A stretch of DNA of 64,000 nucleotides from a virus. Taxonomy: Duplodnaviria > Caudoviricetes. Below are positions 11,251 to 52,227 of this stretch, piece after piece. The stretch is taken from the IMG/VR virus record IMGVR_UViG_3300033802_000250, one strand, 5' to 3'. How positions within the stretch are numbered: position 1 is the stretch's first letter; each line of letters starts with the position of its first letter. The position numbers and the translations under genes were made by a program. Under the pieces are notes generated by a model. The model did not search any database. It had not been told where the DNA came from and saw only the letters and a list, made by a program, of their open reading frames with translations.

Positions 11251-12060
11251 ATGCATACGGGAATTGACCATACGCTCTTGGATCCCAAGCAGATCAAGCC
11301 ATCGAAGCCGGGATATGAGAGCCTGTACGAGCAGTTGGAGTTTGGTCGCTTCAACTCTGTCAAAAGCGGAGCGGCTCCGACGCTGTATCAGGAATTGGTT
11401 GCTTCACAGGGACAGCGGCGCTTCATCCTTCCGCAAGGAACATTCACGGTTGGCGATCACAGTCTCATGGTGCTGGTCAATGGTCAGATGATGCGCGTTG
11501 GCCCGGACAACGATTATGTTGAAATCGACAGCCGAACCATCGAGTTCAACTTCGATTTGGATCAAGATGATGTCGTTGTCTTCCGGGTAAACGGCGGCAC
11601 CAGCGGGCCGCTCATGCATGAAAGCTACGAAGCGACCGCCGGGCAGACGGTATTCGATCTAGCCTCAAGCTATGCGGTCGGCAACCATTCGCTGTTGGTA
11701 TTCGTCAACGGCGCATTCCAGACTGTGGATATCGACTACGAAGAAACATCCCCCAAACGGGTGACATTTCTGGAGCCGCTCGAAGAAGGCGACCTCGTAA
11801 CCTTTCGCGTGGAAGGATTGCCGGTCGTCGTCAGTAAATACCCGAACCAAACGGTGATCAGCACGTTCGACAACGACGGGCGGATTATCCGGGAGGAGAT
11901 CACGGGCGACGTACATATTGTCAAGGAGTTCGAGTACGATCAAAGCGGCTTTCCTTCTCGCATGATTATCCGTGAGGGCGGCTACACCGTCACCAAAACC
12001 TACACATGGGTCAATGGTGTCTGCACGGGTATTGAACAATCCGTGAAGGAGGCCACATAA
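11251..12060 (+). CDS. Virion structural protein with two copies of the 'VxVNG..Q...DY.E' module and a YD-like C-terminus
   Basis: Internal duplication GQRRFILP...LMVLVNGQ...DYVEID / GQTVFDLA...LLVFVNGA...DYEET; strong RBS aggagg. Confidence 0.7.
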   Translation: MHTGIDHTLLDPKQIKPSKPGYESLYEQLEFGRFNSVKSGAAPTLYQELVASQGQRRFILPQGTFTVGDHSLMVLVNGQMMRVGPDNDYVEIDSRTIEFNFDLDQDDVVVFRVNGGTSGPLMHESYEATAGQTVFDLASSYAVGNHSLLVFVNGAFQTVDIDYEETSPKRVTFLEPLEEGDLVTFRVEGLPVVVSKYPNQTVISTFDNDGRIIREEITGDVHIVKEFEYDQSGFPSRMIIREGGYTVTKTYTWVNGVCTGIEQSVKEAT

Positions 12061-13202
12061 TGGACGAGTTTCTGATCCGACACAAATTCCATACGCTCGA
12101 TAAAACCATCGAGGCGAACAAGGCCGCCGCAGACCAGCACCTTGCTCAACATGACTCGGACATCGCCAGCCTCGATCAGCGTGTGGATACGCTGGAAGGC
12201 AAGGAAACAGAAAGCTCCGGCGCAATCAATACGCTTCGTCAGCAGGTAACAGATCTGCAAAAGATGCTTGCTGATGTGACGCACGAGTTGAACAAGACGA
12301 AGCTCATCAATCTGAAACAGGATATCGTCATCCGAACGCTTCATAACATGCAGGCGTTCGATGCTTACGATATGTTCGCCGACACGTTCGCAGATGCGAC
12401 CCACATCGACATGGAGAACAGCATCCGGGCAGAATGGATGCCGGATTACCAAGCGGTCGGCAAAACCCGCCGGTCGGTTGTCGAGCTTCAGCAACTTTCG
12501 GCTCCAACCAACTTCCTGATTGCGAAGAACCAAACGAGCGACGAAGCTATTGCGCAAAGTTTCGTCATTGATAAGACCAAACAGGTTGACAAGGTGTCCA
12601 TTGTCGTCAGCAGGTTCAACGACAATACGACACAGCCGCTTATCGTCAGCATACGAGCCACGATTGACGGCCCGGATTTGACGAGCCGCGATATTACGGC
12701 AAACGAAGCGATAGGCGGATTTGTGGACGTGGAACTACCGGATTACATGCTGGACGCCGGGCATGTGTACTATCTTGTCTTGCGTACCAATGACTCTTAC
12801 GGCTACAGAATTGGCATGGATACGGTGGACAAATATCTCGGCGGCACCTCATTCAGTCTGTTCAACAATGTCTGGACGGACAATAACCACGACATCGCCT
12901 TCAAAATCTGGTGTTTTCCGTCGGAGGACGAAAACAACGCAACGATCCTCAGCGTTCCGAAAACACTGGCAACGACGCCGAAAACAATTGTATTCGAGCG
13001 CGAAGAAACTCTGGAACCCGGGAGCGGGATCAACTACTTCGTATCACGCGACGGCGGCCTGAACTGGAAAATTCTCCAGCCGGGCATCGTAACGAATCTG
13101 GACGACCTGCCGCCCGGCAACAAGCTTGTGCTGAAGGCGTATATTTTGGGCTCCTCCCGGATCGAAGCGTGGGGCTATGTGGTAACAAGGAGTGACGTAT
13201 AA
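12060..13202 (+). CDS. Virion structural protein (coiled coil + split chassis domain with inserted beta-sandwich)
   Basis: Heptad N-terminus; FADTFADATHID...insert...YFVSRDGGLNW; translationally coupled (TAATG). Confidence 0.7.
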   Translation: MDEFLIRHKFHTLDKTIEANKAAADQHLAQHDSDIASLDQRVDTLEGKETESSGAINTLRQQVTDLQKMLADVTHELNKTKLINLKQDIVIRTLHNMQAFDAYDMFADTFADATHIDMENSIRAEWMPDYQAVGKTRRSVVELQQLSAPTNFLIAKNQTSDEAIAQSFVIDKTKQVDKVSIVVSRFNDNTTQPLIVSIRATIDGPDLTSRDITANEAIGGFVDVELPDYMLDAGHVYYLVLRTNDSYGYRIGMDTVDKYLGGTSFSLFNNVWTDNNHDIAFKIWCFPSEDENNATILSVPKTLATTPKTIVFEREETLEPGSGINYFVSRDGGLNWKILQPGIVTNLDDLPPGNKLVLKAYILGSSRIEAWGYVVTRSDV

Positions 13203-16200
13203 TGACCAGAACGACTCGGCTCAGCCAGCGCAAAATCAAGTCCACCGACCCGGCATACCCTTCGCTGAAAGAGCAGTTGGATGCTCGCAATCAGGGCGGC
13301 ACCGGGTCGGGGTACACGATGCCTGCGGGCGGGATTCCTCGTACCGACATGACAGATGATGTACAAGCGTCGCTGGCGCGGGCGGACATCGCCTACATCA
13401 TTCCGCCTACCGGCATCCCGGAAGCGGAACTGGAACAAGCTGTGCGTGACAGTTTGGGCAGAGCAAACACGGCTTATCAAAAGCCACCCGGCGGGATTCC
13501 GATTTCCGATCTGGAGCCCGCCGCGCAACAGCGACTTACCGATTACACATCCTTCTACGTCAAGCCTGCGCCGGGCATCCCTCGCATGGATCTTGATTCT
13601 GCCGTGCAGGCTTCGCTTGGTTTGGCCGACTCTGCATACCAGAAACCGGTCGGCGGTATTCCGGTTGCCGATCTCTCGTCGGAAGTTCAGGAAGCGCTGA
13701 ACAAGGCAGGTACAGCATACCAGAAGCCATCCGGGGGCATTCCGCTGTCTGATCTTGCGGAGACGGTCGTCCGTCTGTCGGATTTGACTCCGTATAACCA
13801 GCATATCAACGATACATCCAAACACATCACAGATCATACCAAGCTGTCGAATATCGGGATTTACTCCCACAGCGAGATCGACCAGCAACTCGATTATCAC
13901 AAGCGGATGATCGAGCAACTGAATCACGAAATCAGCGATGCCCGTGACACCTTTGTTTCGCTTGGCACCCGTATTGACGCAACCATCGGCAAAAACACCG
14001 AGTATGTCGTCAACGACGAGTTCGAGTGGAAGAAAGGCACCATCAACGGGCTGATTGTCAATAAGGAAGGCAACGTCACTTTCAGCTTTATACCGGAGCC
14101 GATCCTGATCGACCTCTACGATGTATCGCAAGGAGACGCTTTTACGGCTGAACGCCGTTTGGGTGGGATCTACTTTACACAAGAAACCCATGTCAATCGC
14201 GGTGATCTGCCTTGGGTGGATGCTACGAATTGGTATGACTACATCGGCATTCGCTCCATGTTTTATGTCTACGCACCGGAAACGGGCGAGTACGAGTTCA
14301 CCTTCGTATTTTCCGGGAAAGTACGGATGCAAGTAGGCGGCCAGCTTCTCTTTAACGACACCAGCGGTTACATCTTCCATAACGCAACGGCTCGCTCCGG
14401 GCGCGTAAAGCTGGAAGGCGGGCGGCTGTATCCGGTGGTTATCGAGGGATGGTATTATACCGAAGGCGACCGGATTATCAGCCTGTATTGGAAGCGTCCG
14501 GGATTCGCAAGCTCCAGCACAATTCCGATGGAATACCTGAACCATAGCGGATATGCAACGGCGGTCGAAGGCACCTATGAATCCGAGGTTATTGACCTCA
14601 AAGATACAGCCATCAGCGTGTGGTATCTGACGACCGAAATGGTGGATTACCGGCAGGAAGATGATGTTGTTGCTGAGGTTTCAACCAGTGATGATGGCGA
14701 AACCTTCGGGCCGTGGGTGGAAACCCCGGCGGTTGGGGAAATCGCGGCGACGCCAAAACGCTTCCTGAAAATCCGCTTCACTGTCCGCAAGCTATTCGCG
14801 CAGTACACGCCGATGCTGAAGGCGTACCGCATCCGCTACATTTCCTCGGCCAACAACTTCTACTACAAGGAGATCATGGAGGCCCGGGATGTTTATCTGA
14901 GCCTGAAGGATCGCCTCGATGCCATTCAGGAAGGCGTCAACCAACTGGCCGATTTGCAATTACAGTTCAACGCCAGCAACATCCATCCCGAATATTTCGC
15001 AAGCGTGCGGCTGGCGGCCATCGAACTTAATCTGCTGAATCAGTATTACAACCACCTGAAAGCCGTTGCCGACGACTATGAACTGCTTGTGGATGGTGTT
15101 GTCGATCATCTGAAAACGACGAATTGGATCGACATTGAACGGAGTGATGCCTTTACTTTTGTTCCCGGCTCGATTGGGCAGAATCAGAATACCACGATCT
15201 TCGAGGGAACGGGTGCGTGGAATCAGTTTACGCTGGATCGCCTTGATTACGACGATAACGGGTTTCTGCGTCTTGCGTATGTGCGCGGTTCTGGTGGAAT
15301 GGTCAACGATATTTTGGACAACCAATATGCGTGGAGCCAGACATCGGAAGCACAGATTGGCCGATCCTACAGAAAATTCCTCGCCCAGCCGTTTTATCCG
15401 CGTCCGCACACCGGAGCAATCAAGCGAATAAAAGTGTATCGGTCGTCAAACGCCAACAACACGGTCTGGTATCGTGTAATGATCTGTCCGGCCAAGCCGG
15501 ATGGAACGCCGGATATTTATGCTCCGCTCTGGCAATCTGCGGATCTTAGTGGAAGCGGAAACTATGTTCACGACTTCGACGAAATCTACGTTACCGTTAC
15601 GCCGGAGCAAAAATACTTCATCGTCATCCAGATGGTGAACTACAATAACAACAACGCATATCTGTACTTCTGGCAATCGTACAACAACTCCAATGCCAGC
15701 GAGCGGCTTCGCTCCGACAACCCGGAGAATCAGCCGTTGTTGATGATGTACACGAACAACGATGCACCTTCGGAAGCTTCGCATTGGGTGACAGGGCAAC
15801 ACTTCATGTGGTGTTATATCGAGGAACATACACAGCACGAGCCGGAGGGGTACGCAGAGTATATCATCGACTACGGCAAACCGACGCGGCTGATCAATGT
15901 CGATTATGATATTGACAATCCGGCAAACGGTGTGGTTCAGATCCGGTATGCGTCGTCGCCGGATATGGGTTTGTGGTCATTGTACTCCGAAGATCCAAAA
16001 GATGTTCCGCCGGATCGCTTCATAAAGGTGCAGATCCACATGACGGCTCCGAGCCTTGGTTATCTGTCACCCGCACTCAAGCGCATCTCCGTTGGGTTTG
16101 CCGGAGTTCATGGCGAAATTATCACGAAGGCGTTCACTTTGGGTCGCGTGCCAACGCACGCTTTGTTGATCGTTGAACAGCCGGAAAACCAACATGTGAG

Positions 16201-16927
16201 ATTCTTCGCCAGCCGGGATGATGGACATTCGTGGACAGAGATTCAGCCGTCAATGATGACGCCACTGACGAATTGCAGTCCGGGTACGCAGATGCGTCTG
16301 AAAATCATGTACGACGGCGATTATCCGCTTGAAGTCATCAACGGATATGCGTTGCAAGGTATCTATCATCGGGATATCACCGGCCAAAACATTACCTCGC
16401 TCCATGAGGAGTATATTGCGGAGAACGGCCAGACGACATTCCGACTCCAGAATCCGTACCCGATGGGCAACAATGCGCTGGAGGTTTACGTCAATGGCAT
16501 CCTGCAATCGGTTGGGCGGGATTACCTCGAAATCGACAACTACACGGTTCAGTTCACGGAGCCGCTGATCGGCAATGATCCGACCGGTGAGGGGGCCGAC
16601 ATCGTAACATTCCGGGTAGCCGTCGGTGCATACGACAATCATGACATGAAGCTCGTCCGGCGGATTGATGTATTGGAAAAGGTCAACAATCCGAAGGTTA
16701 AATCCCATGAAGTGGAGTATGTCTACGACGAGAACGGCAGGTTGGTGGAGGAAATCTACACGGGCTTTGGCTATCACACCGTCGAATACTCGTATTACCC
16801 GGACGGCAAAAAACAGATGGTTATCACGACCACGGACACCACCATCACTACCGAGGAGTTCTGGTATAATGATGATGGAACGATTGCACGAAGAAAGGTA
16901 ACAGTTAGCGAGGTGGCACCGTCATGA
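13202..16927 (+). CDS. Large tail fibre/appendage protein with 27-aa GGIP repeats, PA14-like domain and nested chassis domains
   Basis: Six YxxPxGGIPxxDL repeats. PA14-like YVYAPETGEYEF...VKLEGGRLYPVVIE...LYWKRPG. EIxxARxxxxSLxxR(I/L)D motifs. YD-like C-terminus. Confidence 0.75.
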   Translation: MTRTTRLSQRKIKSTDPAYPSLKEQLDARNQGGTGSGYTMPAGGIPRTDMTDDVQASLARADIAYIIPPTGIPEAELEQAVRDSLGRANTAYQKPPGGIPISDLEPAAQQRLTDYTSFYVKPAPGIPRMDLDSAVQASLGLADSAYQKPVGGIPVADLSSEVQEALNKAGTAYQKPSGGIPLSDLAETVVRLSDLTPYNQHINDTSKHITDHTKLSNIGIYSHSEIDQQLDYHKRMIEQLNHEISDARDTFVSLGTRIDATIGKNTEYVVNDEFEWKKGTINGLIVNKEGNVTFSFIPEPILIDLYDVSQGDAFTAERRLGGIYFTQETHVNRGDLPWVDATNWYDYIGIRSMFYVYAPETGEYEFTFVFSGKVRMQVGGQLLFNDTSGYIFHNATARSGRVKLEGGRLYPVVIEGWYYTEGDRIISLYWKRPGFASSSTIPMEYLNHSGYATAVEGTYESEVIDLKDTAISVWYLTTEMVDYRQEDDVVAEVSTSDDGETFGPWVETPAVGEIAATPKRFLKIRFTVRKLFAQYTPMLKAYRIRYISSANNFYYKEIMEARDVYLSLKDRLDAIQEGVNQLADLQLQFNASNIHPEYFASVRLAAIELNLLNQYYNHLKAVADDYELLVDGVVDHLKTTNWIDIERSDAFTFVPGSIGQNQNTTIFEGTGAWNQFTLDRLDYDDNGFLRLAYVRGSGGMVNDILDNQYAWSQTSEAQIGRSYRKFLAQPFYPRPHTGAIKRIKVYRSSNANNTVWYRVMICPAKPDGTPDIYAPLWQSADLSGSGNYVHDFDEIYVTVTPEQKYFIVIQMVNYNNNNAYLYFWQSYNNSNASERLRSDNPENQPLLMMYTNNDAPSEASHWVTGQHFMWCYIEEHTQHEPEGYAEYIIDYGKPTRLINVDYDIDNPANGVVQIRYASSPDMGLWSLYSEDPKDVPPDRFIKVQIHMTAPSLGYLSPALKRISVGFAGVHGEIITKAFTLGRVPTHALLIVEQPENQHVRFFASRDDGHSWTEIQPSMMTPLTNCSPGTQMRLKIMYDGDYPLEVINGYALQGIYHRDITGQNITSLHEEYIAENGQTTFRLQNPYPMGNNALEVYVNGILQSVGRDYLEIDNYTVQFTEPLIGNDPTGEGADIVTFRVAVGAYDNHDMKLVRRIDVLEKVNNPKVKSHEVEYVYDENGRLVEEIYTGFGYHTVEYSYYPDGKKQMVITTTDTTITTEEFWYNDDGTIARRKVTVSEVAPS
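13313..13780 (+). repeat. Six tandem 81-bp (27-aa) degenerate coding repeats
   Basis: Tyr codons at 13313 and 13718 are exactly 5x81 bp apart; consensus AYQKPxGGIPxxDLxxxVQxxLxxAxT. Confidence 0.9.
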
Positions 16928-19689
16928 CGCAACGCGCCAGACTGGATCAGCTTAAACGAAGCCGAAACAATCTGAACTACCGTACGTTCCTTGAACAGTT
17001 CGAGGAATTTGAACGTGAGGCGAAGCATCTCCGAAAGCCGGTTGCGACTTTCGGGGATCTTCCCTATGTCGGCAACAAACATGGCGACGAATGCCTCGTT
17101 TTGGATACCGGTGTGAAATACTTTTGGGATGCAAATATCCAGAACTGGCTTCCTCTGCTCGGAAAGGGGTATGACGTTCCGAGCGGCGTTATCAAACGTT
17201 ACCGGGGGAAATACATCGCCAGAGGCGGCGAGACAGAGGTTATCCTCAGTCACCGCTACGATGTGGGCATGAACACGCTGGATGTCTACATCAATGGCTT
17301 GCTTCAGGAGGCTGATGTTGACTACCGGGAAATCGACGAGATCACGATTGAATTTACAACGCCGCTGGAAACCGGCATGATCGTGACCTACATGATGCCT
17401 TACGTGGTCGGCAATGCCAACGAAGATGCCGACATTCGGCGACGCCTGCTTCAAATCGAACATAACCATTATCAACTGATGATGGTGAACTACTACCAAG
17501 GCAAACCGGTGAACTCACAGGCATTGTTCTTCGATGGTTTTCTCAATACGAACTATGTCGATTACATCAAAACCACGAAGAACATCGAGTACGACAACAT
17601 CCGGCGGACGATGCGCGTTGCGACCAATACAATCTCCAAGTTCCAAGAGGTTTTTGACTCCGATAGTCAAATTGATCTAACTGTGTCCAATCTGCGCCTC
17701 TTGAACTCGGAAATCACGCTCCCGGTATCGCAGGAGTTCTCTGTTGCCTTTGAAGATGATTTTTCTACGCCGAATAAACTAGCGTTGGAGGCAACAACAG
17801 CTTATTGGGATCCCGAACTGCAACAATTGGCTGTTGACCCGTATTACTCCGGCGGCAATCATTATCAGTTGGGCGATTTCATGGGTACAACAGGCGGTGT
17901 GGAGCGAAGCGGAGTATATTGGGAACAAGCTCCATGTTATTCCGTTGCGCCCGGCAAAAATCACATGTTCGCTGTTCATGGAGTGGATGTAACTCTCGTT
18001 CCAATCAACCGTCCATTTCGTAACACGGATGGAGGCAGTATGTGGGTGCCTGATGTTTCATCAGAGAATATGTCTGGTGCATCCCAACATAACTCAACAC
18101 ATACATGGGGTGCGTACTACTCCAATTCTGCAATCAGAACATTGGTATACGTACCCGAAACCGATAAACTTTACTTCCTTCAACAAGATAGCGAAGGTGG
18201 TGGACGATATAATCAAAAAATACGCTCTTTTTCTACGGTAACATCCAGTTTCACTATCTCAACCGTGCAATCGCGTTGGTATAATAATAATAGGCGATGT
18301 GCCGTATGGGGAACTCAACAAGACCTTGGATGGCCCGCAGGAATGCCAAACACGACGGGCGGCTCGGGGAAAACTGATGTTATTCACAGCTTAGGAGCAA
18401 CTCAAACCCATCTGCTGATTCGTGTCGAGGATACCATCTATTTCGTCAATCCGGTGACATGGTCTGTAGAAAAAGTGCTGGACTGGAGTTCTGCCGAAAT
18501 CAAACCGTCCCGATTCCTGAACAACTCGATGCAATTCGCCGCCGACAACCGGTTTCTGTACTTCCCGTGGTGGGGTGTGTACAAGGAGCATAACGGATAC
18601 TTCGTCGAGGTATTTGACATCGAAGACGGTCGATTCATCGACAAGTATTGGATTACGGAGACGTACCCCACAACGACGGCAATGCACTATGATTTCTTGC
18701 GAAACCGCATGATTCTCGGTTTGTGGGGTGGTAACTGGTACAGTCTGGTTGAAAAAGGCGTTGCCGGAGATTTTAGCTCCAATGGAAGCTTCGCCGGATT
18801 CATGTTGTTTGATCCTCCTGCGACCGGCTTCTCGTTGGCACAGTCGATTCCGCTAACAACCAATCTGTCTGAAGTGGAATACAAACTGAGTGCCACCCAC
18901 GTCGAAAACGGCGGCGTTGTCGAATACTTCATTCGATTCAACGGAGCCGCATGGCAGAGGATTGATCTGGATCGGGAGTATAAATGGATCAATCCGAAAA
19001 AGACGGGTGAGGCGACCATCGAGCTTCGTGTGGCGCTAAAAAACAACGTCGGCACCAGTACATCGCCGATTGTGACGGACTGGAAACTGGACATCAAGCA
19101 ATACCTGAATGAAGGCATTTATGTGTCCAAAGAACAAACGCTCCAGATCAGTAGCGTCAGCAGTGGCAAGATGGTTCTCAATCAGGATGCGCCGAACGAA
19201 ACGTCGATCCAATGGACGATCCAACTGGCCCCCGATGCACCAGAAGTGCCGGTTTCCGAAGACGGCGTGTTCTCGATTAGCGACGGATTGGGTACGGCCT
19301 ACGCGACGATACGGGCCCGCATGGCAACCAACAATACCTTGCTGTCGCCTGTTGTTCGGGACTTTACGCTTCAGATGCATTACGTTGAAGCGGGACGATT
19401 GGAATCCACTGTCTACAATCAGATTTACGACATCGAATACGGAACGATGTGGGTTACGAATACCGCGTCCAATGATTACATTGTTCCGTACATGTCGCGT
19501 GATGGCGGACAAACGTGGGTCGAAGGCGTGCGAGAAGCCAGCGTCAAACTGCCCGACGGTAGTTTCGAGAGCCAATATCGGTTTACGTTTACGGGCGACG
19601 AGCAAATTCGCAACCAAGCCAAAGTGGCCTTTGATATTCGTGGAGCGACCGAGATTGTGCAATACGGCGTCTCGATCAATCCGCTGTGA
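16924..19689 (+). CDS. Tail appendage / receptor-binding protein with three nested chassis domains around a low-GC beta-rich insert
   Basis: VATFGDLP...GD...V fibre motif, a VYING module, three FxDxF openers and three closing halves. Confidence 0.75.
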   Translation: MTQRARLDQLKRSRNNLNYRTFLEQFEEFEREAKHLRKPVATFGDLPYVGNKHGDECLVLDTGVKYFWDANIQNWLPLLGKGYDVPSGVIKRYRGKYIARGGETEVILSHRYDVGMNTLDVYINGLLQEADVDYREIDEITIEFTTPLETGMIVTYMMPYVVGNANEDADIRRRLLQIEHNHYQLMMVNYYQGKPVNSQALFFDGFLNTNYVDYIKTTKNIEYDNIRRTMRVATNTISKFQEVFDSDSQIDLTVSNLRLLNSEITLPVSQEFSVAFEDDFSTPNKLALEATTAYWDPELQQLAVDPYYSGGNHYQLGDFMGTTGGVERSGVYWEQAPCYSVAPGKNHMFAVHGVDVTLVPINRPFRNTDGGSMWVPDVSSENMSGASQHNSTHTWGAYYSNSAIRTLVYVPETDKLYFLQQDSEGGGRYNQKIRSFSTVTSSFTISTVQSRWYNNNRRCAVWGTQQDLGWPAGMPNTTGGSGKTDVIHSLGATQTHLLIRVEDTIYFVNPVTWSVEKVLDWSSAEIKPSRFLNNSMQFAADNRFLYFPWWGVYKEHNGYFVEVFDIEDGRFIDKYWITETYPTTTAMHYDFLRNRMILGLWGGNWYSLVEKGVAGDFSSNGSFAGFMLFDPPATGFSLAQSIPLTTNLSEVEYKLSATHVENGGVVEYFIRFNGAAWQRIDLDREYKWINPKKTGEATIELRVALKNNVGTSTSPIVTDWKLDIKQYLNEGIYVSKEQTLQISSVSSGKMVLNQDAPNETSIQWTIQLAPDAPEVPVSEDGVFSISDGLGTAYATIRARMATNNTLLSPVVRDFTLQMHYVEAGRLESTVYNQIYDIEYGTMWVTNTASNDYIVPYMSRDGGQTWVEGVREASVKLPDGSFESQYRFTFTGDEQIRNQAKVAFDIRGATEIVQYGVSINPL

Positions 19690-22839: not shown

Positions 22840-22849
22840 GGGGTGAGAT

Positions 22850-37085: not shown

Positions 37086-37090
37086 TACCG

Positions 37091-44344: not shown

Positions 44345-44347
44345 TCT

Positions 44348-44746
44348 ATGAGCGAAGTTCAGAGAACATCGTATCCCATGCTGGTCGGTGTCGTGGATGA
44401 GGCTGAAGTCAGACGCCTTGGAAACCTCATCAACGACCTCCGTACTGAAATTGAAGCGATTCGCGCCGACGTGGTTCCGATTGCGGTAGCCAATCTCATC
44501 AGCAACCCTCAGTTCTTCGAGCTTAAAGAGAACCTGAGACTGTTTGCTGAAAGATATGGTATATTGGTAAAAGATATGGATCTCAACGTGAATCCTATCT
44601 TTTCCGCCCTCGAAACTCGCATGGATCAAGCCGAAACGCAAATCATCGACGCGCTGACCCGTATCCAAGTGCTGACGGATCAACAGAATGGGTTCCATCA
44701 GCGTTTGCGTGCCATCGAGCAACAGTTGGGCATACCAACTCCGTGA
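44348..44746 (+). CDS. Coiled-coil hypothetical protein
   Basis: RBS ggagg; heptad C-terminus. Confidence 0.7.
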   Translation: MSEVQRTSYPMLVGVVDEAEVRRLGNLINDLRTEIEAIRADVVPIAVANLISNPQFFELKENLRLFAERYGILVKDMDLNVNPIFSALETRMDQAETQIIDALTRIQVLTDQQNGFHQRLRAIEQQLGIPTP

Positions 44747-44757
44747 GGTGAATAGGC

Positions 44758-46998
44758 GTGAAGACTTTGCAACAATCTACGGCGAGCCTCGACGAGACTC
44801 GCCGTAACGTGCTATATAACCTGTTGAAAGACCGGTACAGCGACCGGGATGACATCACCGAGGAGTTCATCCAGCAAGAGATGAACTTCTATTTGGAGCA
44901 GATGCAAAATGGCACCCCGATCCTCCAGCCAAGAAAACAAGAGGGGCTCACTGACGCCAATAAAATCAATGAGGAGATGCAAGAGGCCGAGATCGACATC
45001 TATACGGTTTTCAGCCAACTGAACCATGTCAGTCAGCGTATCGAACAGCACCAAAAGCTGAATGAGTCGATTCTGAACGACATCAAGCTGAAAATCCGCA
45101 AGGCCGACGAAAAACTGGTCGCCTACAATCAAGTGTTGACCGATCTCGCGGCGCACGCCGTCGTGTACGAAACTTTCCTCGATTACAACAGTCTGGAGAA
45201 GGATCAGAAGTTCTACACGGATCGTGACGGCACACCGGTTGCGCCCGGCTATCAATTGAAGCTCGACGTGTACAAAAATGCGCTCAAGCTTCCGGTCGCC
45301 TACAGCGAAAATACACTGGTTAATTTCTCGGGTCTCAAGATCGCCAACATTCGGATCACGAAACAGCTTGGCGGCGGATTTATTCGCACGCGAAACCCGG
45401 AGCATACCGTAGACAAAGCCATCGACACGTCAATGGAGACGTTCTGGAACGAATGCATTCTGACGGACGCGCCGCTGGAAGTTGATCTCGGGCTGGAATA
45501 CTACGGTGTTAATTTCGGGGCCGTTTGCGAACTTGAGATCGTCTTCGATTACATCACGCGGCTGAACGAAATCACGCTGACGCCATTTACGGAATATCCG
45601 ATTGAGGTCGTTGCTATTTGGGGATACTCCTCGGATAACGAAAGTGAACCGCCGTTCGAGATCGTGAGTCCGGTCGCTAAACTGAAGAATCAGGAGTCTA
45701 CCGACATCATTTCTTACCAATTCCAAGACATCACCTGCAAACGGCTGAAGATCATCCTCAACCAGAAGCACTATGTCAAACGTGACATTGTCATAGAGTT
45801 GGAGGAAAAGACGCTGACGGATGCATGGCTGAAGGCACAAGGCCATGTGGAGATCGACGACAACAAGATCTTCAAGGCGGTCTACAAAGATCAGTTCGAG
45901 CAAAACCCAAACTGGTTTTACCTCAACGAGTTCCTGAAGAAGCGAAACATCATCGACGAGGTGCAGAAGTTCACCACGAGTCGGGAGCCGGAGAAAATAC
46001 AGGTCTCCAAATACGAGTATCAATACGGCCTGTACAACCTCGCCGTCAACCGCAACGAATATCAGCACATGGGAATATACGTCACGAAACCGATGACGCA
46101 CAACAACATTCATGTGGTGACACTGGAGGCAGAGGAGGAGCATCCGACACTAATGGAAATCGGCCTGCCGGTGACAAACATCGAATACTACATCACTGAC
46201 AGCGAGACCCCCGGGCCGGACGACTGGATTCCGATCATGCCAAAGAACATCAAGGAGATTACGTCGGAGCGGCTGTTCTTCAAATTTGAGGATGGTAAGT
46301 ACAAGGCTTACACCCGATTCGATGTGGACAAAATCATCGCTGTGCGTCGCAACGGCAACCGGTTGCTTCCGTCTATTGACTACGAAACGACAGGCCGAAC
46401 GATTATCCTGCACAACTACGATCTGTCGTCGGTTTATACGTTGGACTACAAGCCGGAGGCAAATGCTTATGCCGTTGACTTTCTTCAGCGATACACGGAC
46501 ATCAATGGCGTTATCCACACGAAAACGCAGATTGACCAGTTCACCGGGCTCCAGAAGGGCAACGAGGTGGAGCTTACGTACTATCCGTTTGTGGACAAGG
46601 AGCGTCTGAATCGCCAGCCGCTCGATTGGAATCCGACGTATCTGTCCAACGAGTACATGCCTATCAAGGTGTGGCTCATTCTGCCGGACGGCCAGCACAT
46701 CACTCAGCCCGCTGACAAATATGACGACGTAGCCATCCTTGTCAACAAAACGGATTACTTCAATCCGAACGTCAGCCTGCTGGAGCCGTTCACGGGTGAA
46801 AACTATCAATACCGCGTGGTCAACAACAAGATCAAGTTCAACACATCGTTGCCGGAGGGCACCCGGGTTGTGGTCGAATATCCATACCTGACAGGGCCGA
46901 TTCGGATGAAGACGATCATGCGGCGCAATCTGCATGAAATGGACGGGCTGACGCCTTTCTTGCACGAGTATAAAGTCGTGTTCCAATCTTTGCTGTAG
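44758..46998 (+). CDS. Virion structural protein, paralogue family with shared N-terminal helix motif
   Basis: GTG start; coiled coil, split chassis domain and discoidin-like insert (KAIDTSMETFW). Confidence 0.7.
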   Translation: MKTLQQSTASLDETRRNVLYNLLKDRYSDRDDITEEFIQQEMNFYLEQMQNGTPILQPRKQEGLTDANKINEEMQEAEIDIYTVFSQLNHVSQRIEQHQKLNESILNDIKLKIRKADEKLVAYNQVLTDLAAHAVVYETFLDYNSLEKDQKFYTDRDGTPVAPGYQLKLDVYKNALKLPVAYSENTLVNFSGLKIANIRITKQLGGGFIRTRNPEHTVDKAIDTSMETFWNECILTDAPLEVDLGLEYYGVNFGAVCELEIVFDYITRLNEITLTPFTEYPIEVVAIWGYSSDNESEPPFEIVSPVAKLKNQESTDIISYQFQDITCKRLKIILNQKHYVKRDIVIELEEKTLTDAWLKAQGHVEIDDNKIFKAVYKDQFEQNPNWFYLNEFLKKRNIIDEVQKFTTSREPEKIQVSKYEYQYGLYNLAVNRNEYQHMGIYVTKPMTHNNIHVVTLEAEEEHPTLMEIGLPVTNIEYYITDSETPGPDDWIPIMPKNIKEITSERLFFKFEDGKYKAYTRFDVDKIIAVRRNGNRLLPSIDYETTGRTIILHNYDLSSVYTLDYKPEANAYAVDFLQRYTDINGVIHTKTQIDQFTGLQKGNEVELTYYPFVDKERLNRQPLDWNPTYLSNEYMPIKVWLILPDGQHITQPADKYDDVAILVNKTDYFNPNVSLLEPFTGENYQYRVVNNKIKFNTSLPEGTRVVVEYPYLTGPIRMKTIMRRNLHEMDGLTPFLHEYKVVFQSLL

Positions 46999-47009
46999 GG
47001 GGGAGCAAT

Positions 47010-48776
47010 ATGGCGAATCCGTTGCAGATCAAAACCCGTATCGAGGTCGTCAAAGAGCGGATGGCGTCCATTCTGCGCAAACTGGCGACGGAATACAACA
47101 GTGGCGTCATCAAGTCGCCAGCCGAATTACACCATCGGGTTTATCGGGAACTGGAGGCTTTCTACAACTCCATCGGCAAGAACACATTCAAGCCGATCAA
47201 GGCGTGGGGGCCGCCGTATTCCGACGACCACAACACGATGGTTCGCCAGTTGCGTGACGACTTCCTGACGCTATATCAAGAAGTCATTTACATGACCGAA
47301 GATCTGAAAAAGAACTTTGAGCAGGTAGAACTGGAGCGGCAATCGTTCCTTGATCGGCTGGCGAGGGTCGAAAGCCTTGTGAAAAGCATCGACCTGAACA
47401 TTCGCGAAGCGGATTATACGGTGGTTTTCCGGGATAACTTCGTGGACTATGAGCATTACCGAAAGAATGCAACGGAGCTTACGGCGGCCAACCTGTCTGC
47501 CGATGAGGGTCTCTTGACGCTGGCGCTGGTAGACAGCGAGCGATTCAACGAATACGCGACGATCACGATCATCGAAGGCAACGGATTCCCGGGAAACACG
47601 CACATTGTTCGTTCGGTCGGCGGCACCCTGAAGTTCGAGGGCCAAGAATCCTTACACATCAATCTTGCGGACATCCTCGATGGCAATTCGGACACATGGT
47701 TCGAGTATGAGTTGTTTGAACTTACCGACAGCACGCGGCGGATTACGCAAGGGATGGATTTTGAATACAAGGAGGCTATCGAATGGATCACGTCGGAGCA
47801 TGACGGGTTGCGATGCGTGTTCCAGATTGACCTGCCGAAACCGAAGACTATCAACTGGCTGTCACTGTCGCCGTTCATTCCGTCCGACAAGGGCTCATCG
47901 CCCGCTGTGATTGAGAAAATCATGGTGACGGACGACAAAGGCAATGTCAGCAGTATGGGCTTTGGCGAATCGTTTGACGGAGCCAAAGGCTATCTGTTTC
48001 CGCGCCAAAAGTGCCGGACGATCACCATTTATCTGCGTCAACCGGTCGCTTACGAGACGACCGTTGGTCACTTCTACTTCAAGCAGGTCAACAAGAGCGA
48101 TGTGACCGCGCTCAACCAACGCATCGAACCGGACGGTATTCGCATTCACGGGCCGGTGCCGTCGGTGAAAAACCTCGGCGTCACCTACGATACCGGGAAA
48201 CAACAAATCTTGTATCCGGTCGCGGCGTATGGTGATAAAATAAAAGATGAGGACGAGAAGAAGCGCAACCTGTTCGATATTCCTGCGACGCCAAGCAATG
48301 TACAGGCCGGATTGGAGCAGGTATCCGCTTATCGGTATGTGATCGGGCTAAGGGATGTGTCGCTCGCCAGCTACATGTTTGAGCCAGAGAGTGAATACGT
48401 ATCGGAGCCGTTCTATTCATCAACGCCCATCAAGGCTATCGAGCTTGATGTTGATGTAGATATTCCGGCGCAATTCCCGCAAGATCAGGATTGGCTGGAG
48501 TATTATATTTCCGTGGATGACGGCCAAAACTGGCATCGTATTTACCCGCGCAACGTGTACAAAGCGCAGGCGAAAACGAAGTACCTGTTCAATTCCGGGA
48601 TGCAAAAAAGCGGACGGATTGATGAGATCGGCTACATCGAATCGCTGACCGAGATTCATCAGGTACAACTCAAGATCATCCTGAAGCGGCCCGAAGACAT
48701 CAAAGATGCCGAGTATTACACGCCAATCGTTTACGGTTACGAGCTTCATGCTCTGACCGCAGAGGAGTTGATCTGA
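47010..48776 (+). CDS. Virion structural protein, same family
   Basis: GPPYSDDHNTM...DDF; ILDGNSDTWF; YYISVDDGQNW; TPIVYGYEL. Confidence 0.7.
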   Translation: MANPLQIKTRIEVVKERMASILRKLATEYNSGVIKSPAELHHRVYRELEAFYNSIGKNTFKPIKAWGPPYSDDHNTMVRQLRDDFLTLYQEVIYMTEDLKKNFEQVELERQSFLDRLARVESLVKSIDLNIREADYTVVFRDNFVDYEHYRKNATELTAANLSADEGLLTLALVDSERFNEYATITIIEGNGFPGNTHIVRSVGGTLKFEGQESLHINLADILDGNSDTWFEYELFELTDSTRRITQGMDFEYKEAIEWITSEHDGLRCVFQIDLPKPKTINWLSLSPFIPSDKGSSPAVIEKIMVTDDKGNVSSMGFGESFDGAKGYLFPRQKCRTITIYLRQPVAYETTVGHFYFKQVNKSDVTALNQRIEPDGIRIHGPVPSVKNLGVTYDTGKQQILYPVAAYGDKIKDEDEKKRNLFDIPATPSNVQAGLEQVSAYRYVIGLRDVSLASYMFEPESEYVSEPFYSSTPIKAIELDVDVDIPAQFPQDQDWLEYYISVDDGQNWHRIYPRNVYKAQAKTKYLFNSGMQKSGRIDEIGYIESLTEIHQVQLKIILKRPEDIKDAEYYTPIVYGYELHALTAEELI

Positions 48777-50767
48777 TGGGTATCAAGGAGACTCAGGAGG
48801 ATCTGATTCGGCAAAAGCTCATTCTGGAAGAACTGCGACAGGGCCAGTTTCCAAGCTTATCTGCCATTGAGGAAAAGCTTGCGAGGATTGTAGAAACGCG
48901 GCGGTTGGGATTGCCGCGTTTTACATACCGGCCTATGAACAAAGGCAAAGCGTCAGACACGGACGCCTACAATGCGATGTTCGCCGAAGCAGAAGACGAC
49001 CTCATCACATCTTTCGAGGAAGTCCGGCGGCTGAACAATCGCATTATGGCGCTGTCCAATTACTATGAGTCGAATCGGATCCGCATCGACCGGGAACTGA
49101 AACGCATTGAGTTGAAAACGGAGACGTTGCTTCATCGAAGTCGGTCGCATTTGAACCGCGACGTGCTGTCCGACAACATCAATGATTTCTCCAAGGTCGA
49201 GTTCAAGGGCGACACGGTGCGCAATCTTCCGAGGACGACGGCATTTGTCGATCTGCGGCACAGCGAAGTCCACCTCGATAAAGTCGCACAGCAGACGACA
49301 AAGCACGATCTTTCATCGGCTCGCGTGAGCTTCAAGACACTGACAGATGGTGCCCGCGTCGTTCACTTATCCCCAATACGTGGATGTCTTGTGGATAATT
49401 TGAACGAAGCATGGCGGTCGATCATTCTGTCCCCTGAAGCGAGCGGCGCAATCGGAGAGCTTACAATTTCGCTGGATGCGCCGTTGTACGCTACCAATAT
49501 CAGCATTGATGCACAATGCGGCAGGCCGATGTTGGTGACGCTGTATTTGTCCACAGATGGGGATAACTTTGTGGAATATGAGACGCGCCGGGTTGTATCC
49601 AGTTACCAATGGGTATTTGACCGCACCGCGTTTCAACACATCCGCTTCCGTATGGAAAAGGGTGAGGAAGACAGCATGGATGCGTCGGAGTACGGATATA
49701 TTTTCGGGGCCAAGAGCATCGAGGTACGTGAGGAGCAATATCTGAGCGAAGGGTACTTTGTTTCCAAGCCGTATCCGATCCATCATCACGAGGCCATCGA
49801 CTATATTCATTTGGAGGCCGACGATTATATTCCACCCGGAACGAATATACGGTATTATGTAGGTATGGACTATGGTGACAATGTCATCGAATGGCATGAG
49901 ATCGAAAAGAACCGACCCGTCGAAATGAAGATGGTACAAGCCTACCGGATGGAGATTGACTCTTATGTCGATGGGTATGGCGACCAGCTTTATACAAAGT
50001 TCGGCCACAATTATTACCGGATTGCCAAACTTCCTTTCAAGCCGCTCACCAAAAGCATTCAATTGCTGATGGGGCGTCATATGTGGCTGAAGGAGACGAT
50101 CCCGGCGGAAGTATCGAACCCGGAAGACGGATCGGTTTACCAAACAAGCATCCGGGATTGGATCCGGGCAGGAAGCGCGAGCAAGGAATACATGAACATC
50201 GACAACTATCAGGACATTTTGGCGAAGGATACGTTCCAACGATACACGACCTACGTCTACCTTGAGGAGTCGCTGAGGTACAACGCCGACGTTCATGTCG
50301 ATGCCGACGCTTCACTCGCGATCCTTGTAAACAACAACCAAGTCAAGTCTGTGAACAACATCTACCAACTGCCGTTTCGACCGGGATGGAACAAAATTGA
50401 GGTGCTGACATACTCCCGCAAGGAAGCACAGGAAATCATCTTCAATCTGTATCTGCGGGAAATCAGCGACCGAATCTATGCAAACAATCAGTCGCTTCAA
50501 GAGGTTTCTCTGTACGATCTGCTCAACAATACCAGCATTCGGCTTCACAACCGGTTTGCGGTTGATGATGATTGGAATATTATCGTCAACTACAATCCTA
50601 AAGAAATGGACATCCGGCGGCATGGGGTCGAATATTCGCTGACGTACAATTACAGCGTTTCTCCGCAGACGAATCACCAGTTGCGCTTTATGGCGATCTT
50701 GTCGAAGGAGGATCCGAATAGTTCGGCCTCCCCGCGCCTGAAAGATTACAAGCTGGTGATCGAATAG
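48776..50767 (+). CDS. Virion structural protein, same family
   Basis: SDTDAYNAMFAEAEDDL; LSTDGDNF; EGYFVSKPY; SPRLKDYKL. Confidence 0.7.
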   Translation: MGIKETQEDLIRQKLILEELRQGQFPSLSAIEEKLARIVETRRLGLPRFTYRPMNKGKASDTDAYNAMFAEAEDDLITSFEEVRRLNNRIMALSNYYESNRIRIDRELKRIELKTETLLHRSRSHLNRDVLSDNINDFSKVEFKGDTVRNLPRTTAFVDLRHSEVHLDKVAQQTTKHDLSSARVSFKTLTDGARVVHLSPIRGCLVDNLNEAWRSIILSPEASGAIGELTISLDAPLYATNISIDAQCGRPMLVTLYLSTDGDNFVEYETRRVVSSYQWVFDRTAFQHIRFRMEKGEEDSMDASEYGYIFGAKSIEVREEQYLSEGYFVSKPYPIHHHEAIDYIHLEADDYIPPGTNIRYYVGMDYGDNVIEWHEIEKNRPVEMKMVQAYRMEIDSYVDGYGDQLYTKFGHNYYRIAKLPFKPLTKSIQLLMGRHMWLKETIPAEVSNPEDGSVYQTSIRDWIRAGSASKEYMNIDNYQDILAKDTFQRYTTYVYLEESLRYNADVHVDADASLAILVNNNQVKSVNNIYQLPFRPGWNKIEVLTYSRKEAQEIIFNLYLREISDRIYANNQSLQEVSLYDLLNNTSIRLHNRFAVDDDWNIIVNYNPKEMDIRRHGVEYSLTYNYSVSPQTNHQLRFMAILSKEDPNSSASPRLKDYKLVIE

Positions 50768-50785
50768 CGGGCGGGAGGTTAAGCC

Positions 50786-51031
50786 ATGCGATACCCTGAA
50801 ATGGTCAAAACCAACGCCCGCTATCGGGGGCCGATGGAAAGCGCTAAGCAATCCGGTCAGGCTCTTGATATCGGGCACTCTATCGAAATCCTCAAAGCCG
50901 AGTTCGCTGACCGCGCGGCCAACATCCGGTCGCTGATGGGTAAGGTTATTGAGGAGTACGACAACGCTATTCCGCTTACCACTAAGCAGGTGATGAACCA
51001 AGTGAAGACCATGAAAGGAGGTGAACTATGA
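50786..51031 (+). CDS. Small protein consisting mostly of the family N-terminal motif
   Basis: PEMVKTNARYRGPMESAK...; RBS ggagg. Confidence 0.65.
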   Translation: MRYPEMVKTNARYRGPMESAKQSGQALDIGHSIEILKAEFADRAANIRSLMGKVIEEYDNAIPLTTKQVMNQVKTMKGGEL

Positions 51032-52227
51032 TGTCAAAAGCCCCTCAGTACCAACAGCACACTGTCCGTTTTCGTGACTCTGCTGAGTCCAGCAGGTTCA
51101 ACAGCCACACGCAAAGCGTTTTTTACGATCTCACGGAATTGTTCAACATCGCCAACGAGCAGGAACGGGAGATCCAGCGTATTCGTGAGTTCTTTGAAGT
51201 CGGATCCCACTTTGCGCAGGATCAAATGGATCAAATGCGCAATCTGGTGAGGTCGCTTCAAGAAGACCTTTATGCCGCACAGAGGCCGGGCGAAGTCTAC
51301 ACCAAGACGTTATTCGTCACGGACATACGCGCGGATGAGTCTGTTCCCGAATACGAGCGGGCCTTTGTTGACGCCCAACATGACATCGTAACACTTCCCG
51401 CTTCGGATCGTTCAGGTTCCAAGCTTTACATTTATGACGATGTCAATCGTGAGTACATCGTGCCAAACACGCTGAAATATTCGATCACCCCGGAGGCGAA
51501 CGGATTCGACATTCAGGAGAATGACTTCATCAACGCGCTGACGCCGGACGAGTTTAAGTTCTGGCATCGCAAGTATGTGTACTTCTCCGGCCTCAAGAAC
51601 GAGGTGGAATGTCAAATCACGATTACCTTGCCGGATAACATCATCTCTAGCCGCGATGTGAACACGATATACATACATCCATTCCCGCTCCGTGCGGTGG
51701 ACATTCGCAACGTCGAATACCACCTGAACGGCGGGTGGAAGACGGTTCCGGGCTTTACTCCGATTGATGATGCGGGCAACGTCAAGTTGTGCTTCAGCCC
51801 GACCGCCATGAAAGAAATCCGCATCACGCTTCGTCAACGGCACGCTATCCAGAAAGGCAACAAAACCGTGTTCCATATGGGGCTTCGAGAGATTGGCGTG
51901 TTCTATCACGATTACCAGTCCGGCATTGGGCGGTTTGAAATTCCGGTGGAGTTCAACCCTGCGTTCATCAACAAAGAGATCGTGGGGATCAATCCGATAT
52001 ACCAAAACGAAACGGCATTGTCGGTTCACCAAACGGGTACGAGGCTTTTGACATTCAAGGTCTATGAGGTCGATGAGAATGGAAAGCTCCATTACCTCAA
52101 CGACACCTTCCCGATCCAAGTCAAGAGGAACAAGGTTCTGCTCAAGGGTATCATGAGTATCGACCGAAATACACGAGCAACCCCAACACTCTCTGCTGTC
52201 GAGTTGCTGTATAAAGGCGATTCGTAG
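51028..52227 (+). CDS. Virion structural protein, same family
   Basis: VRFRDSAESSRFN...DLTELF; TPTLSAVEL; RBS aaaggaggtg. Confidence 0.7.
   Translation: MMSKAPQYQQHTVRFRDSAESSRFNSHTQSVFYDLTELFNIANEQEREIQRIREFFEVGSHFAQDQMDQMRNLVRSLQEDLYAAQRPGEVYTKTLFVTDIRADESVPEYERAFVDAQHDIVTLPASDRSGSKLYIYDDVNREYIVPNTLKYSITPEANGFDIQENDFINALTPDEFKFWHRKYVYFSGLKNEVECQITITLPDNIISSRDVNTIYIHPFPLRAVDIRNVEYHLNGGWKTVPGFTPIDDAGNVKLCFSPTAMKEIRITLRQRHAIQKGNKTVFHMGLREIGVFYHDYQSGIGRFEIPVEFNPAFINKEIVGINPIYQNETALSVHQTGTRLLTFKVYEVDENGKLHYLNDTFPIQVKRNKVLLKGIMSIDRNTRATPTLSAVELLYKGDS

Follow-up and report, generated by a model that had tools for sequence, protein, structure and literature searches.

Two described tail systems are close to the locus analysed here. 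The first is the tripod, or VrlC, protein of Herelleviridae, represented by phi812 gp119 (PDB 9EUF, 9EUI, 9EUJ; PMC13433997), phage K gp148, A511 gp106, Deep-Blue gp176 and Vp4 gp120 (PMC11406892). The phi812 model was derived from AlphaFold and then refined into cryo-EM maps (PMC13433997, accessible part). In the accessible parts of the two tripod papers (PMC13433997, PMC11406892) a CBM-like fold is reported for the base domain, labelled ‘CBM16/61-like fold’, and no split host domain is described; the limits given in that part of PMC11406892, 1060-1170, cover the C-terminal half of the domain alone. The second system is Bacillus phage 0305phi8-36, whose gp153-gp175 region was termed hyperplastic and put forward as possibly serving host recognition. 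The accessible text of that paper (Hardies et al. 2007, PMC2147016) names Fn3, vWA, intimin, coiled coils and paralogue families a, b, c and f; the domain described below is absent from it.

The window, 64,000 nucleotides of viral DNA analysed as one stretch, is a tail module from a relative of 0305phi8-36. We mapped 17 copies of a jelly-roll domain of ~130 aa, termed here the chassis, across nine virion genes, which are named by their positions. All nine had been picked out in the earlier note and each was found in its place. Its copy numbers also hold: one in 12060, three in 13202, three in 16924, five in 26124, one intact copy in 38370 and single copies in 44758, 47010, 48776 and 51028. Gene 38370 begins at Met7 within the 38352 ORF and encodes 590 aa. 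The nine genes are syntenic orthologues of 0305phi8-36 gp153-gp175 (EF583821; 37-62% identity), and the 0305phi8-36 proteins were found in virions by mass spectrometry, according to the accessible text of Hardies et al. (2007; PMC2147016). The chassis assignment gives a structural reading to nine virion proteins of this lineage that had long been unannotated. The phage of the window is large and infects a soil bacterium. The copies are as follows, with HHalign values against the 78-sequence profile described below.

12369..13193, + strand: gene 12060 (gp153 orthologue), chassis and cargo, HHalign 98%; N-half 12369-12470, 152-aa cargo, C-half 12927-13193
13997..14845, + strand: gene 13202 (gp154 orthologue), copy 1, HHalign 93%; N-half 13997-14098, PA14 at site 1, C-half 14558-14845
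15086..16363, + strand: gene 13202, copies 2 and 3, one inside the other at site 1, HHalign 98% and 88%; outer N-half 15086-15187, inner N-half 15188-15283, leg-like cargo, inner C-half 15836-16105, outer C-half 16106-16363
17521..19683, + strand: gene 16924 (gp155 orthologue), three copies nested three deep, HHalign 93, 96 and 97%; N-halves 17521-17628, 17632-17730 and 17737-17841, beta-propeller cargo, C-halves 18823-19101, 19102-19380 and 19381-19683
28824..31034, + strand: gene 26124 (gp163 orthologue), stack of five copies with nesting at site 2, HHalign 96% for copy 1 and weak for copies 2-5; N-terminal parts 1-5 at 28824-29171, 29193-29567, 29577-29897, 29916-30278 and 30297-30752; closing strands, in reverse order, at 30768-30827, 30840-30881, 30891-30932, 30936-30977 and 30987-31034
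38550..38945, + strand: gene 38370 (gp167 orthologue), intact chassis, ORF residues 67-198; two Fn3 domains further on
45151..46992, + strand: gene 44758 (gp171 orthologue), HHalign 78%, 15.7 bits, 0/300 shuffles; N-half 45151-45300, middle 46054-46263, last strands 46882-46992
47415..48758, + strand: gene 47010 (gp172 orthologue), HHalign 93%; N-half 47415-47528, discoidin-like cargo of ~280 aa, C-half 48375-48758
49157..50764, + strand: gene 48776 (gp173 orthologue), HHalign 97%; N-half 49157-49285, middle 49736-49933, last strands 50630-50764
51295..52221, + strand: gene 51028 (gp175 orthologue), HHalign 27%, 8.0 bits, 0/300 shuffles; divergent N-half 51295-51405, discoidin-like cargo, C-half 51910-52221

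The intact copy is predicted by AF2 to be all-beta, with a pLDDT of 96.6. In divided copies a short N-half (~35 aa) is separated from a C-half of ~92 aa. Two permissive insertion sites had been proposed; we find three. Site 1 lies ~20 aa past the ‘ID’ of the proposed motif, after a beta-hairpin that is part of the N-half. Site 3, which follows the Asp-box Trp and precedes the penultimate strand, holds ~205 aa in 44758, ~230 aa in 48776 and a loop of ~30 aa in the C-half of 47010. Taken literally, the proposed motif is degenerate in roughly every second copy. The results support a single homologous, insertion-tolerant domain that also hosts copies of itself.

The proposal that each gene carries a different cargo is right in that PA14, propeller, discoidin-like and self-copy inserts all occur, but genes 12060 and 13202 share one cargo family. 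The PA14 domain in copy 1 of 13202 matches at E 3e-9, and the beta-propeller of 16924 has a structural match at Z 15.2. The leg-like cargo has no match in Pfam or NCBIfam; compared with the phage K tripod leg, it reaches 18.3 bits from the 12060 profile and 16.5 bits from 13202, each with 0/300 shuffles as high. A coiled coil is predicted upstream of the N-half in 12060. Discoidin-like cargo occupies site 1 in 44758 and is also present in 48776, where the F5/8 match is only E 0.17; in 51028 the Atlas F5/8 feature score is 0.92. The four discoidin-like cargoes do not detect one another, and their matches to known families are weak.

Several tests bear on whether the copies belong to one family. 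A narrow HMM built from seven close orthologues matched no paralogue. A deep HMM matched eight of the nine genes at E < 1e-3, the remaining gene, 51028, at E 0.026. We then joined the halves in silico and scored them with an HMM from which close orthologues of the window genes had been left out. All 12 copies outside gene 26124 exceeded every one of 300 shuffles (6.2-124.5 bits), and the maximum among 396 windows from other virion ORFs was 5.8 bits. Profile comparison, which the earlier note had singled out as able to overturn its idea, gave at least 78% (78-100%) for 12 of the 17 copies in HHalign against a 78-sequence profile; 11 non-chassis beta slices scored at most 1%. The Fn3 control gave cross-matches of 42-64%, probably because the S-x-D-x-G-x-x-W piece is a generic Asp-box. 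An artefact of low complexity or recent duplication was excluded by the shuffle controls and the absence of DNA repeats.

The copies below this range are 51028 and copies 2-5 of 26124 (24, 11, 1 and 2%). These could be unrelated or analogous Asp-box-like beta-sandwiches, in which case the true count would be ~12 rather than 17. Their HHalign values of only 1-27% against the deep profile and the Asp-box cross-matches to Fn3 speak for this reading, as does the result that copies 2-5, when rejoined, are not significant, their scores being equalled by 6-32 of 500 shuffles. Copy 1, by comparison, reaches 30.1 bits once its C strands are corrected (0/500 shuffles as high). Against this reading, copies 2-4 link to copy 1 or to one another at 52, 69, 94 and 48%. 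Copy 5 scores 26-32 bits in two orthologues and copy 3 of 0305phi8-36 gp163 scores 15 bits, all above 500 shuffles. Closing strands also equal N-terminal parts in number, both at depth 3 and at depth 5. For 51028, the weakest single-copy call, the L037 orthologue matches at E 7.5e-5. We regard a count of ~12 as quite unlikely and retain 17.

The earlier note knew of no named family for this domain. No Pfam or NCBIfam model covers it, a PDB sequence search returned no family, and PHROGs gave matches to whole-protein families only; databases overlook the family because the domain is nearly always cut. It is nevertheless homologous to the solved tripod base domain, and the view that it has no known counterpart is not supported; the tripod structure already displays the split. 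The intact chassis superimposes on phi812 tripod chain 504..1152 with Z 13.5-14.4 and rmsd 2.5-2.8 over 128-131 of 133 residues. As in the divided copies of the window, the match is discontinuous: the N-half lies at ~504, the C-half ends at 1152, and two nested copies enclose the leg domain. The outer copy would correspond to the ‘base’ and the inner copy to the ‘fin’. Searched against the phage K genome, the intact-copy profile had a sole match, the tripod C-terminus (E 6.5e-4), and the rejoined phage K copies scored 39.4 bits (outer) and 17.6 bits (inner) against a shuffle maximum of ~8 (8.4). Direct BLASTP between 13202 and the phage K tripod gave no significant match (E 0.21).

The C-terminal half of the tripod, with a helix ahead of the nested copies, has the same layout as the C-terminal half of 13202, and 12060 is a one-copy version of it. 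An enclosed Cwp84-like leg domain, as in the tripod, occurs in these two genes only. Their 0305phi8-36 counterparts, gp153 and gp154, are tied to the solved tripod of Staphylococcus and Listeria phages, which makes baseplate place and movement testable. The systems also differ. The tripod has a DUF4815 spine, flap and fibre region, whereas the window proteins have none: PF16075 (DUF4815) matches phage K gp148 at 1.5e-205 and is absent from all nine window genes at a threshold of E 0.1. The tripod is one gene, and its product is a homotrimer that docks on a baseplate arm and turns its base domain on contraction; the window has nine genes with 17 copies, three sites and PA14, propeller and discoidin-like cargoes.

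Further matches were found by structure. The baseplate hub gp44 of HFTV1 (PDB 9H4P, 568..887) matches the chassis at Z 12.7, again discontinuously, and its rejoined copy scores 17.3 bits (0/500 shuffles). Tail nozzle and hub proteins of Pa223, GP4, SU10, VP1, A4 and crAss001 contain split jelly rolls at Z 8-10; these were compared by structure alone and share 4-12% identity. Like the chassis, all build a jelly roll from separated segments around an inserted domain, but each chain, in the tests made, has a single such domain, and the virion positions differ. CBM16, CBM61, PNGase PAW and the reelin subrepeat share the fold (Z 8.8-11) as continuous domains, and the reelin subrepeat has the Asp-box in common with the chassis.

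This fold raises the question whether the chassis is itself a carbohydrate-binding module, so that stacking would multiply glycan-binding sites. CBM61 and CBM16 are neighbours at Z 9.0 and 8.9, and glycan binding by the tripod base CBM fold is proposed in the accessible parts of PMC13433997 and PMC11406892. Yet none of 78 intact chassis members matches a CBM or F5/8 HMM in Pfam at E 0.01, and no aromatic position in their alignment comes close to being invariant. The base domain of phi812 rotates by 174 degrees and makes the tripod-tripod interface, a structural role, and glycan binding of tripod homologues was not testable for the authors of PMC11406892 (accessible parts of both papers). We consider glycan binding by the chassis itself unlikely and read it as a structural element.

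Nesting of the halves is supported by a model of the gp155 orthologue, 16924. A split-halves complex of its three N-halves and three C-halves gave an ipSAE of 0.86, the best control giving 0.00; 58 of 80 solved complexes reach the mark used, as do 2 of 110 mismatched pairs. Contact agreement between runs was at least 94% and partner pLDDT at least 88. The best-determined predicted contacts pair the first C-half with the last N-half and the second C-half with the middle N-half. The high score may stem from resemblance to structures already solved, and in single-chain AF2 of the same nest the N-halves have pLDDT < 50. In both 13202 and 16924, it is the last C-half that most resembles the single copy in 12060. 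In gene 26124 a beta-hairpin of the host protein carries the stack in its loop; here strand counts suggest the nested order and which closing strand belongs to which copy.

The earlier note had also proposed that host-binding modules are diversified by domain insertion, in place of DGR mutagenesis or invertase shuffling. In favour of active swapping, cargoes differ among paralogues, the gp163 orthologue has 0, 3 or 5 copies in relatives (three in 0305phi8-36 and five in the window), and neither 0305phi8-36 nor the scanned window ORFs contain a reverse transcriptase. The orthologues speak against it. Across 2-6 close relatives per gene, all cargoes are orthologous and nearly constant in length, with no swap at any chassis site, and the 723-, 600-, 674- and 409-aa orthologues of a distant phage align across nearly their whole length. 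The chassis copies share no DNA repeats, and paralogous copies are too divergent for pairwise or narrow-HMM detection. The swaps that are visible sit elsewhere, in gene 19702 and in gp163 outside the stack. Ongoing diversification by insert swapping is thus very unlikely; the insertions are ancient, and lineages differ only in the stack depth of the gp163-like gene, the sole chassis gene with changing depth. A DGR or shufflon was likewise rejected: scanned window ORFs have no reverse transcriptase or recombinase Pfam match, no repeat pair occurs among the copies, and RVT_1 is lacking in the complete 0305phi8-36 genome. In 16924 cargo changes faster than chassis (N-half of the propeller 19-37%, chassis 26-79%). 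In 44758, 47010, 48776 and 51028 cargo is as conserved as chassis, a pattern expected of structural parts more than of tips that face the host.

The chassis has a jelly-roll beta-sandwich fold of the galactose-binding-like type and is homologous to the tripod base; it is probably an old structural element, both stalk and joint, that presents lectin-like tips. N-half and C-half would co-fold despite hundreds of intervening residues. With the first and last strands paired, both chain ends would exit at one pole, and the permissive loops would open away from them, presumably at the far pole; each inserted copy would therefore lengthen an out-and-back stalk with folded cargo at its tip. Old gene duplications would have spread the domain over nine baseplate and fibre proteins of this lineage, where it may link a helical stem to the tip domains as a jointed spacer. 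The proteins may be trimers placed at the baseplate, with glycan-binding cargo and a hinge-like movement.

Outside the window, giant flagellins contain the domain in nests of 15 and 18 levels, with equal numbers of N-halves and C-halves (15/15, 18/18). In flagellin P0013 the nested register gives a residual rho of 0.385 (0/5000 permutations), compared with 0.13 for the parallel register; the second flagellin shows a weak nesting signal (rho 0.13, p 0.07). No named genome with such a flagellin turned up in GTDB or among JGI contigs. Self-insertion with reverse-order closing is seen in the contacts of the 16924 model, in the tripod range 504..1152 and in the flagellin counts and register. A known parallel is SI3 of the cyanobacterial RNA polymerase beta' subunit, in which HABAS domains are self-inserted in the order A1-B1-C-B2-A2, six levels deep, the showcase deep case in a survey of 2.7 million domains (PMC11515920, PMC13114784). 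The SI3 unit is a four-stranded HABAS sheet (PMC11515920), whereas the chassis is a ~130-aa jelly roll, nested five deep in a virion protein and 15-18 deep in flagellins, in a different setting. Repeated Russian-doll use of this fold seems undescribed: in the literature covered, which was mostly open-access, no relevant account turned up of giant flagellins with nested domains or of phage tail domains arranged as Russian dolls.

These copies may well belong to an unnamed and very widespread ‘extender’ family that builds out-and-back stalks by self-insertion, ranging over phage baseplates, an archaeal virus hub, pilin-like proteins of Patescibacteria, archaeal surface proteins, peptidases and flagellins. 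The Herelleviridae tripod and the fibre proteins of 0305phi8-36 would then come under one family, and the giant flagellins would form propeller-tipped stalks 15-18 deep. If so, flagellins of 2,500-2,900 aa would carry stalks well past the six levels of the 2026 ECOD survey and provide a test case for the folding of chains whose partner strands lie more than 2,000 residues apart. The 0, 3 and 5 copies in one gene and 8-18 in flagellins form a natural series for the growth of recursive insertion. Being small and having three loops that tolerate inserts, the chassis is a candidate scaffold for display in protein engineering as well. The tripod C-half is carried by about 700 phage records.

The repeated domain, a jelly roll of about 130 residues that we call the chassis, is present in 17 copies in nine window genes, counted on the translations. 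Each copy has an N-half of ~35 residues, built of a strand, a turn that closes with the 'ID' motif, and a hairpin; its C-half has ~92 residues, and the two are usually separated by an insert termed the cargo. The window genes are tightly packed, all on one strand, and by tblastn and reciprocal BLAST the window belongs to a relative of Bacillus phage 0305phi8-36 and covers its region from tape measure to replication. The nine genes are 37–62% identical to their 0305phi8-36 orthologues, in conserved order.

Chassis genes of the window (start coordinate; all on one strand) and 0305phi8-36 orthologues
12060, gp153
13202, gp154
16924, gp155
26124, gp163
38370, gp167
44758, gp171
47010, gp172
48776, gp173
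51028, gp175

Mass spectrometry of virions found all nine 0305phi8-36 orthologues, two of them by a single peptide each. Public assemblies contain several more relatives of ~206–213 kb. The record CP186007.1 (206,502 bp; L009, L020-L022, L027) bears the label of a Paenibacillus sp. EC2-1 plasmid; it is a phage genome of the 0305phi8-36 type, syntenic, with a gp163 gene that runs across the contig origin. The label hints at a plasmid-like state and Paenibacillaceae hosts. Beyond the window, a ~900-residue gene of 0305phi8-36 (L026:12326-15025) and EC2-1 (L027:8289-11051) encodes a propeller-like insert flanked by two N-halves on one side and two C-halves on the other, which brings the lineage to at least 10 chassis genes. 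A BFVD match, A7KUQ4 (1073 aa), may be another.

An HMM from seven close gp167 orthologues detected no other copies. A search of 1.84 billion representatives yielded 88 homologues, and the deeper HMM matched all but one of the nine genes at E < 1e-3. As an independent test, the halves were rejoined and scored by an HMM built without close orthologues, with shuffles and 396 control windows as controls. All 12 rejoined copies outside gene 26124 scored above 300 shuffles, and the best control window reached 5.8 bits. In 26124, copy 1 scored 30.1 bits and copies 2–5 were not significant alone; HHalign links copies 2–4 to copy 1 or among themselves (48–94%), and two orthologues have a clear copy 5 (26–32 bits). 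Gene 51028 is the weakest single-copy assignment. Against a 78-member profile, HHalign placed 12 copies at 78–100% and 11 other beta-rich slices at no more than 1%. Most copies therefore withstand the objection that these segments lack significant profile similarity, and the recurrence of one domain across nine virion proteins, claimed in the earlier note, is real and mostly as described there. That nine paralogous virion proteins share one split family, and that this family is tied to a solved baseplate protein, is new as far as we searched.

No Pfam or NCBIfam model matches the chassis. The predicted structure of an intact copy is an all-beta sandwich (pLDDT 96.6). Its top match among solved chains is a phi812 baseplate chain (residues 504 to 1152; Z 13.5–14.4, rmsd 2.5–2.8), followed by an HFTV1 tail chain (568..887, Z 12.7); the earlier note knew no named family for the domain, but its fold and split state are already present in these structures. 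From length and numbering, we infer that the 1152-residue phi812 chain is the tripod (phage K gp148, DUF4815), the VrlC baseplate protein of Herelleviridae. In the tripod sequence, an N-half motif lies at ~504 and two C-halves occupy 944–1039 and 1038–1151; a profile of intact copies matched the phage K genome solely in the tripod C-half region (E 6.5e-4). The tripod leg domain, which sits between the N-half and the C-halves, is recognised by the cargo profiles of 12060 (18.3 bits) and 13202 (16.5 bits), each with 0 of 300 shuffles reaching the score. Combining split chassis with leg-matching cargo as the tripod does, gp153 and, in its C-terminal half, gp154 have a tripod-like layout of a helix, then one or two split chassis, then a leg. 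Neither is a full tripod, the DUF4815 region being absent from both.

The phi812 base and fin are described as ten-stranded, CBM16/61-like sandwiches, and the base is reported to rotate by 174 degrees on contraction and to form a tripod-tripod interface (PMC13433997). The CBM fold annotation in PMC11406892 covers the C-half only, and the passages on this domain in the two papers do not describe a split host domain. Lower matches (Z 8–11) include PNGase PAW, phage nozzle proteins, reelin and CBM61/16. Atlas models at TM 0.73–0.88, taken as leads only, come from phages, Patescibacteria pilin-like proteins, Thermoplasmatota surface proteins, C39 peptidases and propeller proteins. We consider it unlikely that the chassis is mainly a glycan binder and favour, with fair confidence, a role as structural scaffold. 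Like the tripod, the chassis proteins probably form trimeric parts of the baseplate or fibres, and their cargoes probably bind cell-wall glycans.

Two permissive insertion sites had been proposed. Both exist, but site 1 had to be repositioned to after the hairpin, ~20 residues past 'ID', and there is a third. Site 2, before the last strand, is used in 26124 only. The third, behind the Asp-box tryptophan, holds ~205 residues in 44758, 230 in 48776 and 30 in 47010. The S-x-D-x-G-x-x-W piece of the motif is an Asp-box, in line with a BNR match; Asp-boxes occur in unrelated folds. The cargoes of 44758 and 47010 each appear to be interrupted by a further insert.

Run on 16924 as a single chain, AF2 modelled the C-halves and the propeller (Z 15.2) but not the N-halves. 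When the halves were supplied as two chains (three N-halves, three C-halves), ipSAE was 0.86, versus 0.00 for the best of three controls. Of 80 solved pairs, 58 attain the mark applied, as do 2 of 110 mismatched ones. At least 94% of contacts were common to runs, with partner pLDDT of at least 88. The best-determined contacts in the model are antiparallel, pairing the first C-half with the last N-half and the second with the middle one. The pass of this model may be owed to likeness to solved structures, but the tripod alignment (504 to 1152) has the outer pairing in common with it. By subtype similarity, it is the last C-half in 13202 and in 16924 that comes closest to the single copy of 12060, which agrees with nesting. 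The domain's homology and fold, its split state, the three insertion sites and the variation in depth are demonstrated; complementation of N- and C-halves in cis, in nested order, is supported by the model. Both chain ends would leave the domain at one pole with the loops at the opposite pole, so that self-insertion would yield a stalk with cargo at its end. Recursive insertion has a precedent, six levels deep, in RNA polymerase SI3 (PMC13114784).

The 88 homologues include several flagellins of 1,300–2,900 aa (P0013, P0019, P0047, P0040 and P0061 span 1,320–2,859 aa). Between Flagellin_N and Flagellin_C they carry N-halves in tandem and then C-halves in tandem, and in the longer proteins a central propeller-like domain separates the two arrays.

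Half-domains in three flagellins
P0013, 15 N-halves and 15 C-halves
P0019 (L029:6228-14807), 18 N-halves and 18 C-halves, the first N-half placed by eye
P0047, 12 N-halves and 12 C-halves if shortened N-halves are counted by eye

In P0013, with per-unit effects removed, N-half similarity mirrors C-half similarity in reverse order (rho 0.385, 0 of 5000 permutations; parallel order 0.13); the same test gave rho 0.13, p 0.07 in P0019. The genes come from short-read assemblies, and their units are mostly 20–75% alike, so they are not simple assembly expansions. The P0019 gene lies in a fliW-csrA-fliD cluster (L029, 60% GC). To the extent of our searches, nesting of 15–18 levels in flagellins, five to six times the depth of the 16924 design, is new. 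A similar gene, P0011 (L028:8001-15769), has no Flagellin_N and 5–6 N-halves versus 19 C-halves; downstream, in another frame, are two further C-halves and a weak Flagellin_C, and the locus is either a broken gene or a misassembly.

Among orthologues all cargoes are homologous and vary little in length, and a much more distant phage retains gp171, 172, 173 and 175 at full length. The 16924 propeller (N-terminal half 19–37%) and the 13202 leg-like cargo (21–51%) drift faster than most of their own chassis, as host-facing tips would; four discoidin-like cargoes drift no faster than theirs. No DNA repeats linking copies were found, and the window ORFs scanned and 0305phi8-36 yielded no reverse transcriptase or recombinase. 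The single clear change is gp163 depth: the window and three relatives have five copies, 0305phi8-36 and one other relative have three, and the distant phage has none, with a plain hairpin where the stack would be. The chassis is thus both inserted module and host, in stacks that grew or shrank over long times. The three permissive sites and this 0/3/5 variation have not, in our searches, been described before. With cargoes orthologous and only gp163 depth varying, the proposal that the scaffold diversifies host binding by insertion, in place of DGR or invertase, is not supported, and active swapping of cargoes is very improbable. The proteins evolved by insertion, not through a dedicated diversification device.

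Some 0305phi8-36-type gp163 proteins, including that of 0305phi8-36 itself (L024:229-6657), have an extra ~290-residue insertion ahead of the stack, absent in window 26124-28800. The 26124 N-terminal domain weakly matches DUF6250 (E 0.012) and 3-keto-disaccharide hydrolase (E 0.036). Gene 19702-21498 (tail-collar and coiled coil) occupies the slot of the unrelated gp156, filled in relatives by 240–614-residue genes with Collar, aBig_2 or neither; this slot is a real swap hotspot adjoining stable chassis genes. Three relatives have a small SNase-domain gene, absent from the window, between the gp156 and gp157 slots (L032:14616-14954, L033:13508-13846, L035:14291-14623).

Genes 44758, 47010, 48776, 50786 and 51028 have a similar N-terminal segment and a predicted coiled coil ahead of the chassis, which suggests a heteromeric assembly. 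Three adjacent paralogues at 21967-24464 (gp158-160 orthologues; 25–33% alike, no Pfam match) possibly form a heterotrimer. The gp168 orthologue (40155-43673) has a long Gly-rich repeat region and measures 678–1172 aa among relatives. A second small repeat of ~60–70 residues, in genes 11251 (twice), 13202, 16924, 40155 and 62136, probably corresponds to paralogue family a of Hardies et al. 2007.

Second small repeat, window coordinates
11251-12060
16330-16650
17200-17490
41450-41770
62136-62384

One window ORF matches Mgm101p (E 5.8e-7), which suggests a Rad52-type annealing protein near RecB-like and RuvC genes.
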